DNA of 8,026 bases from a virus (IMGVR_UViG_2654587792_000015), one strand, 5' to 3'; positions 1-8,026 are shown, counted from the stretch's first letter. A program made the numbers and translations. Notes: generated by a model from the letters alone, not told the origin.

Positions 1-95
1 CCGATAAACCGGGTCGGCGAACTGCTCCCCTGGCGCGTAGCACTGCCGACTGAATAACACATCCCCGTCAATACGGTTCTTGCTGCACGCTTACG

Positions 96-1571
96 TTGAT
101 CATGAATGGGCAGCATACCGAGTTTAATCGCCTTCTCGGGCTCGGTAATGAATTACTTCAGCAGCGACAGGGGCTGGTGAATGTACCGTTACGGCTACCA
201 CAGGCAACCCTGGATGATAAACAGCAGACTGCACTGAATAACAGCGAGCGCGAACTGGCTCTGTCCCGCCTGAAGGGGGAAGCCCGTGAGCGTGCCCGCT
301 TGGGTTATGCTGCGGATGATCTCGGCTTTGTGGGAGAGGCGTATCAGACAGCCAGACAGAATTATATCAATAACTCACTGGATGCCTGGCGAAATAACCA
401 GGCAAATAAACCCAAAGCGCATAAAAAGACCGAAGCGGAAAAAACAGAAGATATTTATAAACGGCTGATTAAACAGCAAAAAGAACAAATAGCACTGGCA
501 GGGCAGAATACTGAACTGGCTAAGATGAAATATCAGGTCAGTCAGGGCGAATTATCAACCCTGTCAGAAGCGCAGAAAAAAACGCTTTTGCAGAATGCAG
601 CACTCATCGACCAGAAAAAGATTCGTGAGCAGCTTGCTGCGTATGAAAGCAGCCTGGCGGACAGTAATGCCAGTACCCGGGCGTCTAACGACGCGCAGTT
701 ACTGGGATATGGTGAAGGCTCACGGATGCGTGAACGACTCCAGGAAATGTGGAGTATCCGGCATGAGTTTGAGCAGAAAAATAACGAGCTGCTGAGACAG
801 TATCAGGCCGGAGAAATTGAAGAAGCCCTGTGGAAACAGGAGAAAGAACTGAATAAAAAATATCTGGAAGAGCGTCTCAGCGATCAGCAGGATTATTATG
901 CAAAGGCCGATGCTTTACGTAATAACTGGAATGCAGGACTCCAGGAGGGGCTGACCAACTGGGCAGACAGTGCCACCGATTATGCTTCGCAGGCGGCAGA
1001 TGCTGTCGTTTCCACTATGGACGGACTGGTATCAAATATTTCCGATGCACTGGCCGGAAATGTTGTGGACTGGAGAAACTGGGGGAGTTCAATTCTCCAG
1101 GAAGTTTCAAAAATTCTGATGAATGCGGCCATTGTTAACGGACTGAAGTCACTCTCCGGTGCCGGAGGGTGGCTTGGTACGGTCGGCGGATGGATTTCGG
1201 GGGCGGTGGCAAACGCAAAAGGTGGTGTTTACACATCAGCAAATCTGAGTGCTTACAGTAACACTATTGTGGATACACCGACGTATTTTGCTTTTGCGAA
1301 AGGTGCCGGGCTGATGGGCGAGGCCGGGCCTGAAGCTATCATGCCACTGACACGGGCAGCGGACGGCTCTCTTGGGGTCAGAGCCATTGGCAATGTGAAT
1401 AGTGGCGGGGGGGTTGTTTATTCTCCCGTGTATCACATCAGCATTCAGAATCAAGGGAGCAATGGCGAGATAGATGCGCGCTCAGCCAGGGGACTGGTGG
1501 ATCTGATCGACAGCAGGGTTGTGTCAATTATGCAGTCATCGCGTCGGGATGGAGGATTGTACAGTGCCTGA
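96..1571 (+). CDS. H: Phage tail tape measure protein (lambda gpH-like), C-terminal ~490 codons only; probably a 5'-truncated remnant rather than a complete gene
   Basis: Open frame 96-1571 (TTG at 96, first ATG at 102), ending ...RRDGGLYSA then TGA at 1569-1571. The Gly-rich, hydrophobic C-terminal segment (NWNAGLQEGLTNWADSATDYASQ...ILMNAAIVNGL...) and the Q/E/K/R-rich coiled-coil-like region before it match the C-terminal architecture of lambdoid tape measure proteins, and the ORF sits immediately upstream of M-L-K-I-J. No Shine-Dalgarno motif precedes 96 or 102, and all three forward frames contain stops within nt 1-57 (frame 0 TGA 51-53, frame 1 TAA 55-57, frame 2 TAA 5-7 and TAG 38-40). 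Confidence 0.75.
   Translation: MIMNGQHTEFNRLLGLGNELLQQRQGLVNVPLRLPQATLDDKQQTALNNSERELALSRLKGEARERARLGYAADDLGFVGEAYQTARQNYINNSLDAWRNNQANKPKAHKKTEAEKTEDIYKRLIKQQKEQIALAGQNTELAKMKYQVSQGELSTLSEAQKKTLLQNAALIDQKKIREQLAAYESSLADSNASTRASNDAQLLGYGEGSRMRERLQEMWSIRHEFEQKNNELLRQYQAGEIEEALWKQEKELNKKYLEERLSDQQDYYAKADALRNNWNAGLQEGLTNWADSATDYASQAADAVVSTMDGLVSNISDALAGNVVDWRNWGSSILQEVSKILMNAAIVNGLKSLSGAGGWLGTVGGWISGAVANAKGGVYTSANLSAYSNTIVDTPTYFAFAKGAGLMGEAGPEAIMPLTRAADGSLGVRAIGNVNSGGGVVYSPVYHISIQNQGSNGEIDARSARGLVDLIDSRVVSIMQSSRRDGGLYSA
1549..1571 (+). promoter_or_regulatory. H/M translational-coupling junction: Shine-Dalgarno GGAGG plus overlapping stop and start
   Basis: GGAGG at 1551-1555, GTG 1564-1566, H stop TGA 1569-1571 (GTGCCTGA). 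Confidence 0.5.
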
Positions 1572-1905
1572 GCCTGAAGTTTTTAACTGGATCCCCCGTG
1601 AGGGGATGGAGACGACACGAAAGCCATCAGTTATTACGGTAAAGTTTGGTGACGGATATGAACAGCGACGGGCTGGTGGTCTGAATGCGGATCTGAAAAC
1701 GTTTAAACCGGTATTTCGTGTCACAGATGAATATTCCCGTGCCGCGCTGGACAGTTTTTTATCCCGTCATGCCGGGATTCGTGCTTTTTTGTGGCGTCCG
1801 CCAAAACACAACAGGACTGTCCGGGTTGTCTGCAGGGAGTGGAGCATTTCGGATAATGCCATGTATACCGATTTTAACTGTACCTTTGAAGAGGTCACTC
1901 ACTGA
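1564..1905 (+). CDS. M: Phage minor tail protein M (lambda gpM-like)
   Basis: Frame-1 ORF containing ...VKFGDGYEQRRAGGLNADLKT...FLWRPP..., which I recognise as gpM-like. Preferred start is GTG 1564, preceded by GGAGG at 1551-1555 (8-nt spacer) and overlapping the H stop (GTGCCTGA); an alternative in-frame ATG at 1549 has no Shine-Dalgarno motif. The stop TGA at 1903-1905 overlaps the L start ATG at 1905-1907. Confidence 0.85.
   Translation: MPEPEVFNWIPREGMETTRKPSVITVKFGDGYEQRRAGGLNADLKTFKPVFRVTDEYSRAALDSFLSRHAGIRAFLWRPPKHNRTVRVVCREWSISDNAMYTDFNCTFEEVTH
1672..1679 (+). other. Chi octamer 5'-GCTGGTGG-3' (RecBCD recombination hotspot motif) inside M
   Basis: Exact match GCTGGTGG at 1672-1679 on the + strand. 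A single occurrence is near chance expectation, so functional significance is uncertain. Confidence 0.4.
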
Positions 1906-2604
1906 TGCAGGATATACAGCAGGAAACACTCAATGAGTGCACTAAAACGGAGCAATCCGCGCAGCATCGTGCTCTGGGAAATCGACCTGACAGAGGTCGG
2001 CGGAGAACGTTATTTCTTCTGTAATGAGCAGAACGAAAAAGGTGAACCAGTCACCTGGCAGGGGCGACAGTATCAGCCCTATCCCATTCAGGGAAGCGGA
2101 TTTGAAATGAATGGCAAAGGCACCAGTACGCGCCCCACGCTGACGGTTTCTAACCTGTACGGTATGGTCACCGGGATGGCGGAAGACATGCAGAGTCTGG
2201 TCGGCGGAACGGTGGTCAGGCGTAAGGTTTACGCCCGTTTTCTGGATGCGGTGAACTTCGTCAACGGAAACAGTGACGCCGATCCGGAGCAGGAGGTGAT
2301 CAGCCGCTGGCGCATCGAGCAGTGCAGCGAACTGAGCGCGGTCAGTGCCTCCTTTGTACTGTCCACGCCGACGGAAACGGACGGCGCCGTTTTTCCGGGC
2401 CGCATCATGCTGGCCAACACCTGCACCTGGACCTATCGCGGTGACGAGTGCGGTTATCACGGTCCGGCGGTCGCGGATGAATATGACCAGCCGACGTCCG
2501 ATATCACGAAGGATAAATGCAGCAAATGCCTGAGCGGCTGTAAGTTCCGCAATAACGTCGGCAACTTTGGCGGCTTCCTTTCCATTAACAAACTTTCGCA
2601 GTAA
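1905..2604 (+). pseudogene. L: Phage minor tail protein L (lambda gpL-like), reading frame disrupted by an apparent 1-nt insertion near 1959-1962
   Basis: ATG 1905 (coupled to the M stop) opens frame 0: MQDIQQETLNECTKTEQSA..., which hits TAA at 2022-2024 after 39 codons. Homology continues in the +1 frame from 1963 (SIVLWEIDLTEVGGERYFFCNEQNEKGEPVTWQGRQYQPYPIQ...) to TAA at 2602-2604; the six-frame track shows only the +1 piece (1933-2604). Joining the two gives 19 + 213 = 232 aa, the length I recall for lambda gpL. Confidence 0.8.
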
Positions 2605-2609
2605 ATCCC

Positions 2610-3353
2610 ATGACACAGACAGAATCAGCGATTCTGGCGCACGCCCGGCGATGTGCGCCAGCGGAGTCGTGCGGCTTCGTGGTAAGAACGCCGGAGGGGG
2701 AAAGATATTTCCCCTGCGTGAATATCTCCGGTGAGCCGGAGGCGTATTTCCGTATGTCGCCGGAAGACTGGCTGCAGGCAGAAATGCAGGGTGAGATTGT
2801 GGCGCTGGTCCACAGCCACCCCGGTGGTCTGCCCTGGCTGAGTGAGGCCGACCGGCGGCTGCAGGTGCAGAGTGATTTGCCGTGGTGGCTGGTCTGCCGG
2901 GGGACGATTCATAAGTTCCGCTGTGTGCCGCATCTCACCGGGCGGCGCTTTGAGCACGGTGTGACGGACTGTTACACACTGTTCCGGGATGCTTATCATC
3001 TGGCGGGGATTGAGATGCCGGACTTTCATCGTGAGGATGACTGGTGGCGTAACGGCCAGAATCTCTATCTGGATAATCTGGAGGCGACGGGGCTGTATCA
3101 GGTGCCGTTGTCAGCGGCACAGCCGGGCGATGTGCTGCTGTGCTGTTTTGGTTCATCGGTGCCGAATCATGCCGCTATTTACTGCGGCGACGGCGAGCTG
3201 CTGCACCATATTCCTGAACAACTGAGCAAACGAGAGAGGTATACCGACAAATGGCAGCGACGCACACACTCCCTCTGGCGTCACCGGGCATGGCACGCAT
3301 CTGCCTTTACGGGGATTTGCAACGATTTGGCCGCCGCATCGACCTTCGTGTGA
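2610..3353 (+). CDS. K: Phage tail tip assembly protein K (lambda gpK-like), with an N-terminal MPN/JAMM-like motif and a C-terminal NlpC/P60-like region
   Basis: Uninterrupted 247-codon ORF starting 5 nt after the L stop. A JAMM-type motif H-x-H-x7-S-x2-D is present (HSHPGGLPWLSEAD, about nt 2811-2852), and candidate NlpC/P60 Cys and His lie in VTDCYTLF and PNHAAIY. The 3' end overlaps the I start by 103 nt in a different frame, as in lambda. Confidence 0.9.
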   Translation: MTQTESAILAHARRCAPAESCGFVVRTPEGERYFPCVNISGEPEAYFRMSPEDWLQAEMQGEIVALVHSHPGGLPWLSEADRRLQVQSDLPWWLVCRGTIHKFRCVPHLTGRRFEHGVTDCYTLFRDAYHLAGIEMPDFHREDDWWRNGQNLYLDNLEATGLYQVPLSAAQPGDVLLCCFGSSVPNHAAIYCGDGELLHHIPEQLSKRERYTDKWQRRTHSLWRHRAWHASAFTGICNDLAAASTFV

Positions 3354-3899
3354 AAACGGGGGCCGAAGCCATCCGGGCACTGGCCACACAGATCCCGGCG
3401 TTTCGTCAGAAACTGAACGAGGGCTGGTATCAGGTGCGCATTGCCGGGCGTGATGCAGGCGAAAACGAATTATCAGCCCGTCTTAATGAGCCGCTGAAAA
3501 ATGGTGCCGTGATCCACATCGTACCGCGTCTGGCGGGAGCAAAAAGTGGCGGTGTGTTTCAGGCGGTGCTGGGGGCGGCGCTGATTGCAGTGGCATGGTG
3601 GAACCCTGCAGGCTGGCTGGGAGCCGCGGCTGTATCGGGCATGTATGCGGCAGGGGCCAGTATGATCCTGGGCGGAGTGGCGCAGATGCTGGCACCGAAA
3701 GCCAGAACGCCCACGTACACACACAACAGATAACGGCAAACAGAACACCTATTTCTCCTCACTGGATAACATGGTTGCCCAGGGCAATGTTCTGCCTGTT
3801 CTGTACGGTGAAATGCGCGTGGGGTCACGGGTGGCTTCTCAGGAGATCAGCACGGCAGACGAAGGGGACGGTGGTCAGGTTGTGGTGATTGGTCGCTGA
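3251..3899 (+). pseudogene. I: Phage tail tip assembly protein I (lambda gpI-like), reading frame disrupted by an apparent 1-nt insertion near 3708-3713
   Basis: ATG 3251 (GAGAGAGG upstream, inside the K 3' end) opens frame 2: MAATHTLPLASPGMARICLYGDLQRFGRRIDLRVKTGAEAIRALATQ..., which terminates at TAA 3731-3733 (...KARTPTYTHNR). The conserved gpI-like C-terminus (...TTDNGKQNTYFSSLDNMVAQGNVLPVLYGEMRVGSRVASQEISTADEGDGGQVVVIGR) is in the +1 frame (frame 0) and ends at TGA 3897-3899, just before the J ribosome-binding site. The switch point is at or near the CCC run 3710-3712. Confidence 0.75.
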
Positions 3900-3917
3900 T
3901 GCAAAATGTTTTATGTG

Positions 3918-3937
3918 AAACCGCCTCAGGGCGGTTT
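3918..3937 (+). promoter_or_regulatory. Intergenic hairpin between I and J; possible weak terminator, attenuator or mRNA-stability element
   Basis: AAACCGCC (3918-3925), loop TCAG (3926-3929), GGCGGTTT (3930-3937), followed by TGTCGTTT. It lies between the I stop (3897-3899) and the J ribosome-binding site (3948-3951). Confidence 0.3.
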
Positions 3938-3959
3938 TGTCGTTTATGGAGCGTGAGGA

Positions 3960-6900
3960 ATGGGTAAAGGCAGCAGTAAGGGGCATACCCCGCGCGAAGC
4001 GAAGGACAACCTGAAGTCCACGCAGCTGCTGAGTGTGATCGATGCCATCAGCGAAGGGCCGATAGAAGGTCCGGTGGATGGATTAAAAAGCGTGCTGCTG
4101 AACAGTACGCCGGTGCTGGACACTGAGGAGAATACCAACATCTCCGGCGTCACGGTGGTGTTCCGGGCAGGTGAGCAGGAGCAGACACCGCCGGAGGGGT
4201 TTGAATCCTCCGGCTCCGAGACGGTGCTGGGTACGGAAGTGAAATATGACACGCCGATCACCCGGACCATCACGTCGGCAAACATCGACCGTCTGCGCTT
4301 TACCTTCGGTGTGCAGGCACTGGTGGAAACCACCTCAAAGGGGGACAGGAATCCGTCGGAAGTCCGCCTGCTGGTTCAGATACAGCGTAACGGTGGCTGG
4401 GTGACGGAAAAAGACATCACCATTAAGGGCAAAACCACCTCGCAGTATCTGGCCTCGGTGGTGGTGGATAACCTGCCGCCGCGCCCGTTTAATATCCGGA
4501 TGCGCAGGATGACGCCGGACAGCACCACAGACCAGCTGCAGAACAAAACGCTCTGGTCGTCATACACCGAAATCATCGATGTGAAACAGGGCTACCCGAA
4601 CACGGCACTGGTCGGCGTACAGGTGGACTCGGAGCAGTTCGGCAGCCAGCAGGTGAGCCGTAATTATCATCTGCGCGGACGCATTCTGCAGGTGCCGTCG
4701 AACTACAACCCGCAAAAACGGCACATACAGCGGTATCTGGGACGGAACGTTAAAACCGGCATACAGCAACAACCCGGCCTGGTGTCTGTGGGATATGCTG
4801 ACCCACCCGCGCTACGGCATGGGGAAACGTCTTGGTGCGGCGGATGTGGATAAATGGGCGCTGTATGTCATCGGCCAGTACTGCGACCAGTCGGTGCCGG
4901 ACGGCTTTGGCGGCACGGAGCCGCGCATCACCTGTAATGCGTACCTGACCACACAGCGCAAGGCGTGGGATGTGCTCAGTGATTTCTGCTCGGCGATGCG
5001 CTGTATGCCGGTATGGAACGGGCAGACGCTGACGTTCGTGCAGGACCGACCGTCGGATAAGGTGTGGACCTATAACCGCAGTAATGTGGTGATGCCGGAT
5101 GATGGCGCGCCGTTCCGCTACAGCTTCAGCGCCCTGAAAGACCGCCATAATGCCGTTGAGGTGAACTGGATTGACCCGAATAACGGCTGGGAGACGGCGA
5201 CAGAGCTTGTTGAAGATACGCAGGCCATTGCCCGTTACGGTCGTAACGTCACGAAGATGGATGCCTTTGGCTGTACCAGCCGGGGGCAGGCGCACCGCGC
5301 CGGGCTGTGGCTGATTAAAACAGAACTGCTGGAAACGCAGACCGTGGACTTCAGCGTGGGTGCAGAAGGGCTTCGCCATGTACCGGGCGATGTCATTGAA
5401 ATCTGTGATGATGACTATGCCGGTATCAGCACCGGCGGGCGCGTGCTGGCGGTGAACAGCCAGACCCGGACGCTGACGCTCGACCGTGAAATCACGCTGC
5501 CATCCTCCGGTACCACGCTGATAAGCCTGGTTGACGGAAGTGGCAATCCGGTCAGCGTGGAGGTTCAGTCCGTCACCGACGGCGTGAAGGTAAAAGTGAG
5601 CCGTGTTCCTGACGGTGTTGCTGAATACAGCGTGTGGGGGCTGAAGCTGCCGACGCTGCGCCAGCGCCTGTTCCGCTGCGTGAGTATCCGTGAGAACGAC
5701 GACGGCACGTATGCCATCACCGCCGTGCAGCATGTACCGGAAAAAGAAGCCATCGTGGATAACGGGGCGCACTTTGACGGCGACCAGAGCGGCACGGTGA
5801 ATGGTGTCACGCCGCCAGCGGTGCAGCACCTGACCGCAGAAGTCACCGCAGACAGTGGGGAATATCAGGTGCTGGCGCGCTGGGACACGCCGAAGGTGGT
5901 GAAGGGCGTGAGCTTCCTGCTTCGCCTGACCGTGGCAGCGGACGATGGCAGTGAGCGGCTGGTCAGCACGGCCAGGACGACGGAAACTACATACCGCTTC
6001 ACGCAACTGGCGCTGGGAAATTACAGGCTGACAGTCCGGGCGGTAAATGCGTGGGGACAGCAGGGCGATCCGGCATCGGTATCGTTCCGGATTGCCGCAC
6101 CGGCAGCACCGTCGCGGATTGAGCTGACGCCGGGCTATTTTCAGATAACCGCCACGCCGCATTTTGCGGTTTATGATCCGACGGTACAGTTTGAGTTCTG
6201 GTTCTCGGAAAAACGGATTGCTGATATCAGGCAGGTTGAAACCAGCGCGCGTTATCTTGGTACGGCGCTGTACTGGATAGCCGCCAGTATCAATATCAAA
6301 CCGGGCCATGATTATTATTTTTACGTTCGCAGTGTGAACACCGTTGGCAAATCGGCATTCGTGGAGGCTGTCGGTCGGGCGAGCGATGATGCGGAAGGTT
6401 ACCTGGATTTTTTCAAAGGAGAAATCGGGAAAACACATCTGGCCCAGGAGCTGTGGACGCAGATTGATAACGGTCAGCTTGCGCCGGACCTGGCTGAAAT
6501 CAGGACGTCCATTACGAATGTCAGCAATGAAATCACGCAGACCGTCAATAAAAAACTGGAAGACCAGAGTGCGGCAATCCAGCAGATACAGAAAGTTCAG
6601 GTTGATACAAATAATAACCTGAACAGCATGTGGGCCGTGAAACTGCAGCAGATGCAGGACGGACGCCTTTATATTGCGGGTATCGGAGCCGGTATTGAGA
6701 ATACGCCAGCAGGTATGCAGAGTCAGGTGCTTCTGGCTGCTGACCGGATTGCGATGATTAATCCTGCGAATGGCAACACAAAGCCGATGTTTGTTGGTCA
6801 GGGCGATCAGATATTCATGAACGAAGTGTTCCTGAAATACCTGACGGCTCCCACCATTACCAGCGGCGGTAATCCTCCGGCATTTTCCCTGACACCGGAC

Positions 6901-7440
6901 GGGCGGCTGACGGCGAAAAATGCCGATATCAGCGGTAACGTGAATGCGAACTCCGGGACGCTCAACAACGTCACGATTAACGAAAACTGTCGGGTTCTGG
7001 GAAAACTGTCCGCCAACCAGATTGAAGGCGATCTCGTTAAAACAGTGGGCAAAGCTTTCCCCCGGGACTCCCGTGCACCGGAGCGGTGGCCATCAGGGAC
7101 CATTACCGTCAGGGTTTATGACGATCAGCCGTTTGACCGGCAAATTGTTATTCCGGCGGTGGCATTCAGTGGCGCTAAGCATGAGAGAGAGCATACTGAT
7201 ATTTACTCCTCATGCCGTCTGATAGTGCGGAAAAACGGTGCTGAAATTTATAACCGTACCGCGCTGGATAATACGCTGATTTACAGTGGTGTTATTGATA
7301 TGCCTGCCGGTCACGGTCACATGACGCTGGAGTTTTCGGTGTCAGCATGGCTGGTAAATAACTGGTATCCCACAGCAAGTATCAGCGATTTGCTGGTTGT
7401 GGTGATGAAGAAAGCCACCGCAGGCATCAGTATCAGCTGA
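3960..7440 (+). pseudogene. J: Phage host-specificity / central tail fibre protein J (lambda gpJ-like), reading frame disrupted by an apparent 1-nt insertion at the A5 run 4714-4718
   Basis: ATG 3960 with GGAG at 3948-3951 (8-nt spacer). Frame 0 reads MGKGSSKGHTPREAKDNLKSTQLLSVIDAISEGPIEGPVDGLKSVLLNSTPVLD..., which I recognise as the gpJ N-terminus. After ...SNYNPQ (about 4715) frame 0 degenerates and stops at 4851-4853, while the gpJ-like sequence continues in the +1 frame from about 4720 ([39 protein letters not shown]...) uninterrupted to TGA 7438-7440. Removing one nucleotide in 4713-4719 yields a single ORF of about 1159 codons. Confidence 0.85.
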
Positions 7441-7458
7441 ATTTTATAACCCATATAC

Positions 7459-7483
7459 GGGCGCCAGAAATGGCGCCTTTTTT
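7459..7483 (+). terminator. Rho-independent terminator downstream of J
   Basis: Stem GGCGCC (7460-7465), loop AGAAAT (7466-7471), stem GGCGCC (7472-7477), followed directly by TTTTTT (7478-7483). It lies 19 nt after the J stop and before the lom-like ribosome-binding site. Confidence 0.65.
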
Positions 7484-7507
7484 ATTGCAGAAAAGCGAGA
7501 GGTAATT

Positions 7508-8026
7508 ATGCGTAAAGTTTGTGCAGCCATTTTGTCCGCAGCCATCTGTCTGTCCGTATCCGGTGCGCCTGCATGGGCGTCTGAACATCAGTCCACACTG
7601 AGCGCGGGGTATCTTCATGCCCGTACGAACGCTCCCGGCAGCGATAATCTGAACGGGATTAACGTGAAATACCGTTATGAGTTTACGGACGCGCTGGGGC
7701 TGATTACGTCCTTCAGTTATGCCAATGCTGAGGATGAGCAAAAAACGCACTACAGCGATACCCGCTGGCATGAAGATTCCGTGCGTAACCGCTGGTTCAG
7801 CGTGATGGCGGGGCCGTCTGTGCGCGTGAATGAATGGTTCAGCGCGTATGCGATGGTGGGTGTGGCTTACAGCCGTGTGTCGACTTTCTCCGGGGATTAT
7901 CTCCGCGTAACTGACAACAAGGGGAAAACGCACGATGTGCTGACCGGAAGTGATGACGGTCGCCACAGCAACACCTCTCTGGCGTGGGGAGCTGGCGTGC
8001 AGTTTAACCCGACCGAATCCGTGGCC
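7508..8026 (+). CDS. lom: Lom-like outer membrane protein (Ail/Lom/PagC/OmpX family), 5' part; the 3' end lies beyond the window
   Basis: ATG 7508 preceded by GAGAGG (7497-7502). The frame is open to the end of the window (173 codons): MRKVCAAILSAAICLSVSGAPAWA-SEHQ... The N-terminus is a typical signal peptide with an A-x-A cleavage site; GINVKYRYEF and the alternating aromatic/hydrophobic strands are characteristic of the Lom/Ail beta-barrel family. It occupies the position immediately downstream of J, as lom does in lambda. It is absent from the ORF track because no stop occurs within the window. Confidence 0.8.
   Translation, partial: MRKVCAAILSAAICLSVSGAPAWASEHQSTLSAGYLHARTNAPGSDNLNGINVKYRYEFTDALGLITSFSYANAEDEQKTHYSDTRWHEDSVRNRWFSVMAGPSVRVNEWFSAYAMVGVAYSRVSTFSGDYLRVTDNKGKTHDVLTGSDDGRHSNTSLAWGAGVQFNPTESVA

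Follow-up and report, generated by a model that had tools for sequence, protein, structure and literature searches.

Gene organization of the contig

The analysed window is a complete contig (JHTM01000182.1; 8,026 bp) from a draft assembly of E. coli. The Pfam families of the called genes and comparison with annotated relatives revealed the gene order H'-M-L-K-I-J-lom', all on the + strand, which, together with the matching protein families and 96% DNA identity, places the contig within a lambda-like tail-tip module. The module starts with the 3' part of the IS-interrupted tape-measure gene H (positions 95–1571, approximately the last 492 of about 1075 codons; PF06120, PF09718) and ends with the 5' part of lom (7508–8026), encoding an Ail/Lom outer-membrane protein and open to the contig end. 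Between them lie genes for the minor tail proteins M (1549–1905; PF05939) and L (1905–2604; PF05100), the JAB/MPN and NlpC/P60 tail-tip assembly protein K (2610–3353; PF14464, PF00877), the tail assembly protein I (3350–3899; PF06805), and the tail tip/host specificity protein J (3960–7440; PF24801, PF13550, PF24421, PF24489, PF09327, PF12421). A preliminary description of this DNA had claimed that M and K are intact, and both were found to be uninterrupted. M is identical to the WP_001330090-type M, and this exact protein was found on at least 1000 contigs; K is the exact protein WP_059111265.1, labelled E. coli. The H-to-lom region is multi-copy in the species: of 5,426 complete E. coli genomes, 5,090 contain it, at 21,133 places altogether (median 3 per genome, up to 20 copies).

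The window opens with 94 nt from the right end of an ISEc22-like element of the IS66 family (1–94, + strand), which runs to ...GCACGCTTAC and is joined to the interior of H. This segment is 98.9% identical to the annotated ISEc22 end in CP117053 (L097, 6337–6431), and positions 95–136 match H at 1501–1542 of L097. The ISEc22 end abuts H at approximately nt 1752 of 3228, at window position 94/95, and the contig holds one side of the element only. The IS–H junction does not appear in the preliminary description. With an IS element in an essential virion gene, the prophage looks defective even without the frameshifts described below; this disruption, which is independent of them, counts in favour of their being real.

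Single-base insertions in L, I and J

When the window was aligned globally with the intact prophage CP068041 of E. coli (identity 96.2%), it showed three 1-base insertions, at about 1965 (L), 3713 (I) and 4724 (J), and no further indel between 95 and 8026. The same 3-base excess was found against the isolated phage vB_EcoS-640R1 (7,932 query bases versus 7,929), which confirms the earlier claim that each of these genes carries a +1 disruption relative to intact orthologs. When the three bases are removed, every gene is full length and free of stops.

In L, the extra base lies near codon 20. The gene reads MQDIQQETLNECTKTEQSA from 1905, after which the frame changes to that of the 1933–2604 ORF; an in-frame ATG at 1933 leaves L a 223-codon ORF. 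The lesion patch, TCCGCGCAGCATCGTG (1955–1970), has 16 nt, while the intact alleles have 15 (TCCGCGCTGATCGTG or TCGGCCAGCGTGGTG), and the extra base was located to approximately 1961–1965. In I, the extra base is near codon 121 (approximately 3713–3716), and the frame changes between 3350–3733 and 3771–3899, with the 0 frame stopping at 3731–3733. The patch AACGCCCACGTACACACACAACAGAT (3705–3730) corresponds on its left to one allele family (ACGCCCACG) and on its right to the other (CGTACACA..ACAAC). J, with one extra base near codon 255, is split into the ORFs 3960–4853 and 4795–7440; its patch, CCGCAAAAACGGCACATACA (4711–4730), compares with the intact alleles CCGGAAAAACG-CACATACA or CCGCAGACGCGGCA-ATACA, and the extra base (approximately 4720–4724) can be read as a G (CG to CGG) or as a C. 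Each lesion sits in a small patch mixing bases from two in-frame allele families.

Uncompensated coding frameshifts were detected in 3 of 56 related prophage segments (4.4 kb each), amounting to 7 events, 5 of them within one error-prone contig. With a Poisson mean of 0.125, P(≥3) is approximately 3e-4 by our own arithmetic; given this low panel frequency, the three lesions of the window exceed the background rate. When the window was included in a MAFFT alignment, every one of the 56 panel sequences received paired 1-nt gaps at the L site, whereas panel-only alignments had no gaps at the L, I or J site. As the gaps vanish without the window, the +1/-1 reading of the site is one possible alignment of clustered substitutions and no established polymorphism.

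Neither programmed frameshifting nor homopolymer error accounts well for these lesions. The former would restore L, I and J by a +1 ribosomal shift, and J does have a rare CGG codon after AAA, where a one-base skip would yield ...PQKRTYS..., as in an intact allele family. However, the lesions are missing from thousands of related prophages and viable phages, which have continuous ORFs in all cases, the three sites lack a common motif, and in L and J a 0-frame stop occurs 20–43 codons downstream of the lesion. The probability of such programming is negligible, and its rejection in the preliminary description is borne out by the close relatives, viable phages among them, all of which are in frame at these positions.

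The second possibility, platform indel errors (454, Ion Torrent or long-read) at homopolymers, had been raised earlier on the grounds that two of the three sites are homopolymers (C3 and A5). Short runs (C3, A5, CC, GG) are indeed found at or adjoining the sites, and panel contig L029 shows that such errors occur in public prophage sequences: it has true homopolymer-type indels (C2>C3, G2>G3, T4>T5, G5>G4) with otherwise identical flanks. However, the same or longer runs are present in intact alleles. The A5 run of J also occurs, for example, in CP066032 (CCGGAAAAACG-CACATAC), and the CCCA of the window corresponds to CCCC in the nearest intact allele of I, so that the C3 run is no expansion; at the L site, no run exceeds 2. 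No run-length change against an otherwise identical allele was found, each lesion being accompanied by additional local base differences. Two of them fall among the 1–10% most variable patches of the region (L at approximately the 90–94th percentile of local diversity, I at the 98–99th); at J, whose second allele family has few representatives in the panel, diversity is for that reason not elevated. The J lesion was, moreover, seen again in another assembly. The lesions look unlike ordinary run-slippage mutations, each being a small complex change within its patch; in contrast to the positive control L029, they do not alter homopolymer length, which counts for real lesions. The homopolymer claim, and long-read indel error with it, is not supported, and we consider platform error very improbable.

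Selection on the tail genes

Another explanation is a long-standing cryptic prophage that slowly gathered independent point frameshifts. It agrees with the disruption of H by an IS and with the presence of three broken genes, but not with the pattern of selection: pN/pS is 0.09–0.12 in L, I and J and 0.07–0.21 in the intact genes (0.07 for H versus CP068041), there are no stop codons and no other indels across 7.9 kb, and the window-private substitutions number 5 synonymous to 1 nonsynonymous. Between the two copies of J that share the lesion, there are 28 synonymous and 7 nonsynonymous differences. Such gradual decay is improbable, and of the earlier view of a defective prophage accumulating mutations, the defect itself stands (the IS in H) and the long decay does not. 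The absence of relaxed selection also counts against the lesions being real at all, as does the mutational spectrum: in spontaneous mutation of E. coli, mutation-accumulation studies give an indel-to-substitution ratio of roughly 1:10, from which three indels against at most six private substitutions are far removed.

Distribution of the lesions

The preliminary description had proposed that identical disruptions in other assemblies would speak for genuine pseudogenes. For L and I, there were no matches. The L lesion had none in IMG/VR (2.9 M contigs) or the GTDB representative genomes, and 12-mers across its patch occurred in no fetched relative; the I lesion had none in IMG/VR (2.9 M contigs) or JGI metagenomes. 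Screening of 5,426 complete E. coli genomes turned up neither among the best local matches, and no +1-length allele of either patch was present in the 2.9 M IMG/VR contigs. The J lesion was detected in none of the complete genomes, metagenomes or GTDB representatives. This distribution argues against real lesions. The same applies to the truncated products, which an exact-protein look-up among approximately 15 billion proteins confined to the window contig; no Logan contig carries them, which is uninformative if the reads were not deposited. Searches of IMG/VR, JGI metagenomes and GTDB representatives for in-frame parent alleles (optional-base patterns, and the right-hand patch halves of L and I) also found none. 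As regards a template-switch origin, nearby direct or inverted copies of the patches were sought, and only distant 9–10-mers, as expected by chance, were found.

For J, the expectation held in part: an identical lesion allele is present on two contigs (L093 and L094), both from one other, possibly non-independent draft genome, and with differing sequence backgrounds, a recurrence that counts for real lesions. L093 is 98.97% identical to window positions 3929–8023, without gaps, and L094 is 94% identical to the window; both begin at IS5 ends. SNPs specific to each copy are retained as near to the lesion as 34 nt (4758) and 92 nt (4628), which argues against indiscriminate read mixing at this site. 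The second draft genome may, however, share a laboratory pipeline with that of the window, in which case the recurrence would possibly be non-independent, and this counts against real lesions.

The complete genome of E. coli O111:H2 12A carries an ortholog of L093 in which J is intact. The two agree at every base over 905 nt on the upstream and 2,576 nt on the downstream side, and all 28 differences lie in a tract of approximately 660 nt around the lesion; the other in-frame allele family is found on a co-resident prophage in 12A. The clustering of the differences and the co-residence of the second family together give the picture of a conversion tract between copies, which likewise favours real lesions.

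Assembly artefact or real lesions

The main competitor of real lesions is a repeat-induced assembly artefact, to which we assign an appreciable, though clearly minority, probability. Reads from several 90–97% identical H-to-lom copies would have been merged during consensus calling or polishing, the genes themselves being intact; where the alleles of a patch form a +1/-1 pair, a caller keeping the base in both columns would produce a net +1. If the lesions are artefactual, consensus error induced by repeats is the form they would take. The limits of the contig are exactly those of the conserved multi-copy block, with repeats on both sides (the IS 5', lom 3'), and its genes look fully functional once the three bases are removed. 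The lesions are column-wise mixtures of two real alleles: at all three, the two in-frame families mix within 15–30 nt and the 'inserted' state of both is held, and nowhere else in the window do three very short exact-match phrases follow one another. They are, moreover, confined to two draft assemblies and never seen in complete genomes. All four lesions observed (the three of the window and a second one in the J of L094) are +1, with no -1 event, which fits a caller preferring a base over a gap, unlike natural mutation, and counts against real lesions.

Several observations run against the artefact. Three contigs share an identical J lesion, yet each retains SNPs of its own 34–92 nt away, and immediately before the L lesion a single family accounts for all 9 family-specific SNPs, without mixing. 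Mosaicism is evidence of both kinds. A greedy exact-match parse and a copying-model Viterbi analysis, with leave-one-out controls on the 56 related segments, found the window to be highly mosaic (rank 1–3 of 57), yet no outlier, since its 35 switches fall within a continuum with the next sequences (33, 33 and 32). Finally, the window and L094 both start with approximately 94 nt of IS sequence, which is compatible with a de Bruijn-graph assembler of k about 95 that builds contigs from read k-mers only; if this is so, hybrid k-mers could not have arisen without later polishing.

Real defect and assembly error are inseparable from the sequence alone, and both alternatives of the preliminary description remain alive, with its details (decay, homopolymers) in need of correction. 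On balance, we give about an even chance to the reading that L, I and J each carry a real, recent +1 lesion in an IS-inactivated lambda-like prophage. We infer both that the extra bases are present in the DNA and not in the assembly alone, and that recombination introduced them. Pools of defective prophages, as in O157 Sakai, recombine with each other. Under the real-lesion reading, the IS66-family insertion in H would have inactivated the prophage first. Short-patch ectopic recombination (gene conversion) between co-resident, 90–97% identical lambdoid prophages would then have made the patches; where a local offset of one base separates the two in-frame allele families, the window, as a fine-scale mix of both, would keep the extra base of each. 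Selection would have spared the lesions because the prophage could no longer make tails. A broader form of this proposal, in which the tail genes of an IS-killed prophage are inactivated by short, imprecise conversion patches from co-resident lambdoid prophages and not by random point mutation, with +1 scars such as that of J spreading between copies within one cell line, is put forward only tentatively and is rather unlikely to hold in full; if true, prophages would be domesticated along a route driven by recombination, and the sequence would bear a recognisable signature of it.

Under either reading, the finding is an ordinary one, of little importance outside curation. If the lesions are real, the prophage is one more defective lambdoid prophage of E. 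coli, with the modest twist of frameshifts that look recent and recombination-derived. If they are artefacts, the contig gives a small warning that draft assemblies may overstate the number of prophage pseudogenes in multi-copy tail modules, through errors that can lie outside homopolymers.

Comparison with known systems

Among sequenced phages, the one closest to the window is Escherichia phage vB_EcoS-640R1 (ON470612.1); it shares gene order and Pfam families with the window, at 96.4% DNA identity over 95–8026. Its genes are continuous, whereas the window has the extra base in L, I and J and the IS66-family element in H. As regards collapsed or near-identical repeats, which give rise to consensus errors in draft assemblies, the window resembles them in being a short, repeat-bounded contig from a multi-copy family, with lesions of one sign where copies differ; it is unlike them in that one lesion recurs in contigs with copy-specific flanking SNPs. 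Among the defective lambdoid prophages of EPEC/EHEC-type E. coli, the IS66/IS2-riddled prophage of O111:H2 12A (CP077479), whose J is 98.7% identical to that of the window, differs in having IS elements in L/K instead of H, an intact J and no +1 lesions, but it likewise has an IS-disrupted tail module, and its host carries several co-resident lambdoid prophages with different alleles.

Gene content of the contig and an IS element in H

An exact-protein look-up identified the window as the complete contig JHTM01000182.1 (8,026 bp) of draft assembly GCA_001506145.1; its K protein is RefSeq WP_059111265.1, labelled Escherichia coli. The called genes and their Pfam families constitute the distal tail module of a lambda-like phage: the 3' part of H (to position 1571), M (1549-1905), L (1905-2604), K (2610-3353), I (3350-3899), J (3960-7440) and the first 173 codons of lom (7508-8026). 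The nearest sequenced phage is vB_EcoS-640R1 (96.4% identity), and among 5,426 complete E. coli genomes the best match to the whole window reaches only 96.5% identity. The tail block is multi-copy in these genomes, with a median of 3 places per genome.

Sequence matching revealed that positions 1-94 are the right end of an IS66-family element, ISEc22 (terminal repeat ending in GCACGCTTAC), and that the interior of H follows from base 95, at about nt 1752 of 3228. Since the IS end is joined directly to the H interior, the tape-measure gene is interrupted. This fourth lesion of the tail module had been overlooked in the preliminary description. Irrespective of L, I and J, tail formation by this prophage is very probably abolished. 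The IS end also explains the contig break. L094, an IMG/VR contig of one other draft genome, likewise starts with ~94 nt of an IS end (IS5). The equal overhangs suggest that both assemblies were made with one assembler setting, perhaps k of ~95 in a de Bruijn graph, and the assemblies possibly stem from a common project.

The sequence AAACCGCC-TCAG-GGCGGTTTT between I and J (3918-3939) has the form of a GC-rich hairpin with a trailing T run and resembles an intrinsic terminator; a similar element is present in L093, a second contig of the genome that yielded L094. The 562-codon ORF antisense to J (4750-6438, minus strand) most likely reflects the GC-rich codon usage of J rather than a gene of its own.

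Single-base insertions in L, I and J

Global alignment with the intact E. coli prophage CP068041 revealed exactly three 1-base insertions, at positions ~1965 (L), ~3713 (I) and ~4724 (J), and no further indels across 95-8026. The segment 1800-4950 comprises 3,151 bases, versus 3,148 in each top match, and L, K, I and J are annotated as intact in all of these matches. The surplus base proposed earlier for each of the three genes was thereby confirmed, and M and K indeed proved to be undamaged. Uncompensated coding frameshifts were detected in only three of a panel of 56 related 4.4-kb prophage segments (7 events, five of them in one contig), and by our own arithmetic the Poisson probability of three frameshifts in one segment is ~3e-4. 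The lesion count in the window exceeds this background rate.

In L, a 223-codon ORF (1933-2604) starts at an ATG that has an AGGA in front of it and continues past the lesion; its product has a new 11-residue N-terminus followed by L residues ~21-232. Given this ORF, the L lesion may do less damage than the I and J lesions.

Two of the lesions had been ascribed to homopolymer sites (C3 and A5), but changes in run length do not account for them. The A5 run beside the J lesion is also found in intact alleles (CCGGAAAAACG-CACATAC in CP066032), and the surplus J base is G, or C if the other allele family is the comparator. At the I site, the nearest intact allele reads CCCCGT versus CCCACGT in the window, and the longest run in the L patch is two. 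The window lesions are dissimilar to those of the panel contig L029 (IMGVR_UViG_2534681675_000017), where run lengths are altered in both signs and the flanks are otherwise identical. The L and J genes of L029 carry five single-base indels, all of them run-length changes (C2>C3, G2>G3, T4>T5, G5>G4, plus one deletion), which makes this public prophage contig a textbook example of sequencing errors at homopolymers.

Mixed alleles at the lesion sites

Each lesion lies within a short patch in which two in-frame allele families differ by clustered substitutions, and in all three patches the window is a fine-scale mix of both. The L patch reads TCCGCGCAGCATCGTG in the window, TCCGCGCTG-ATCGTG in family 1 and TCGGC-CAGCGTGGTG in family 2; the I patch ACGCCCACGTACACAC, ACGCCCACG-GCAGCC and ACTCCC-CGTACACAG; and the J patch CAAAAACGGCACATAC, GAAAAACG-CACATAC and CAGACGCGGCA-ATAC, respectively. 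The window retains a base at both gap positions of the gapped family alignment, which results in the +1. At the L site, MAFFT gapped exactly one of two columns in 56/56 panel sequences when the window was included, whereas without it the families align gap-free; the +1/-1 reading thus corresponds to one valid alignment and is unproven as a polymorphism. Three successive very short exact-match phrases occur window-wide only at the three lesion patches, and local diversity is in the top ~10% for the L patch and the top ~1-2% for the I patch. The lesions are local events of a complex kind, as opposed to random errors or simple slips of one base.

A template-switch origin was rejected, as a search for a nearby template of the patches found none. 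Programmed +1 frameshifting, already dismissed in the preliminary description, was discarded here as well, because all relatives, viable phages included, are in frame at the lesion sites.

Distribution of the lesions

An exact look-up against ~15 billion proteins found the four truncated products in this contig only. In 5,426 complete genomes, the best local alignments lack all three insertions (top matches of 160 nt versus 161 nt, ≤97.5% identity). In 2.9 million IMG/VR contigs we found, for the L and I patches, neither a copy nor an identically flanked in-frame parent nor a +1-length allele; nor was the L patch found in GTDB representative genomes, or the I patch in JGI metagenomes. Neither metagenomes nor GTDB representatives yielded the J lesion allele; an identical allele is carried by L093 and L094 (IMG 2648501437). 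Thus, the comparison with related strains proposed earlier showed recurrence of the J lesion, in one other draft genome, but not of those in L and I.

L093 matches positions 3929-8023 at 98.97% identity, gap-free, and its J is split identically. The two J genes differ by 28 synonymous and 7 nonsynonymous changes, which indicates that their divergence arose under selection and that the lesion patch was introduced later. L093 starts with an IS5 end and an unrelated short gene, with no I gene upstream of J. This AT-rich gene, whose product is listed as a hypothetical protein in the annotation of the complete E. coli O111:H2 12A genome, and the IS5 end (L093 1-426) directly precede J, replacing I, and represent a different, IS-associated arrangement of the I-J junction. 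L094 shares 94% identity with the window; its IS5 end is joined to H, and L, K and I are intact. Its J contains a second +1 (GACGG to GACGGG, L094 5398-5404), also where the allele families differ (GACGGAAGTGGC versus GACGGGCAGGGG).

Strain 12A carries an ortholog of L093 with an intact, annotated J (99.3% identity). A ~660-nt tract holds all 28 L093-12A differences in J and the lesion, and the two sequences are identical over the 905 nt preceding it and the 2,576 nt following it. A second, co-resident 12A prophage has the other in-frame allele family; within the tract L093 and the window mostly follow this allele, with the ortholog base at a few positions, and the ortholog G kept alongside the co-resident allele's C produces the J +1. 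The tract looks like a conversion tract between co-resident prophages, although an assembler mixing two copies would yield the same pattern.

Origin of the lesions

With the three bases removed, all genes are full length and free of stop codons. Values of pN/pS versus CP068041 are 0.12 (L), 0.11 (I) and 0.09 (J) in the lesioned genes and 0.07 (H) and 0.21 (K) in intact ones, and five of the six substitutions private to the window versus its 56 relatives are synonymous. The long decay implied by the proposal of accumulating inactivating mutations is thus unsupported; the lesions, if real, would be recent. Spontaneous mutation in E. coli gives an indel-to-substitution ratio of roughly 1:10, and three indels against at most six private substitutions are far from it, which argues against ordinary point mutation as their source.

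We consider it an even call that the L, I and J lesions are real and recent. With H interrupted by the IS, later tail-gene lesions would be selectively neutral. Moreover, the ~94-nt IS starts suggest a de Bruijn assembler, which cannot create k-mers absent from the reads. A repeat-induced consensus error is a less probable but substantial possibility: the four lesions are all +1, each retains the base of both families, and no complete genome carries any of them, their occurrence being confined to two draft assemblies that may share an origin. The contig also coincides exactly with the conserved multi-copy block and is bounded by repeats, its genes look perfectly functional once repaired, and in overall chimerism tests the window ranks 1-3 of 57, but within a continuum. 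Against such an error, three backgrounds share an identical J lesion yet retain copy-specific SNPs at distances of 34 and 92 nt, which would also have been evened out had reads been mixed indiscriminately. The remaining readings, taken jointly, seem unlikely.

Compared with lambda, the window contains the well-known tail-tip module. It belongs to a lambdoid prophage that is defective, as is common in E. coli, or else the draft assembly of such a module is in error. No feature lies outside the known kinds of system, and the one mildly unusual trait is the recombination-like, mixed-allele signature of the frameshifts, in place of a slippage signature.
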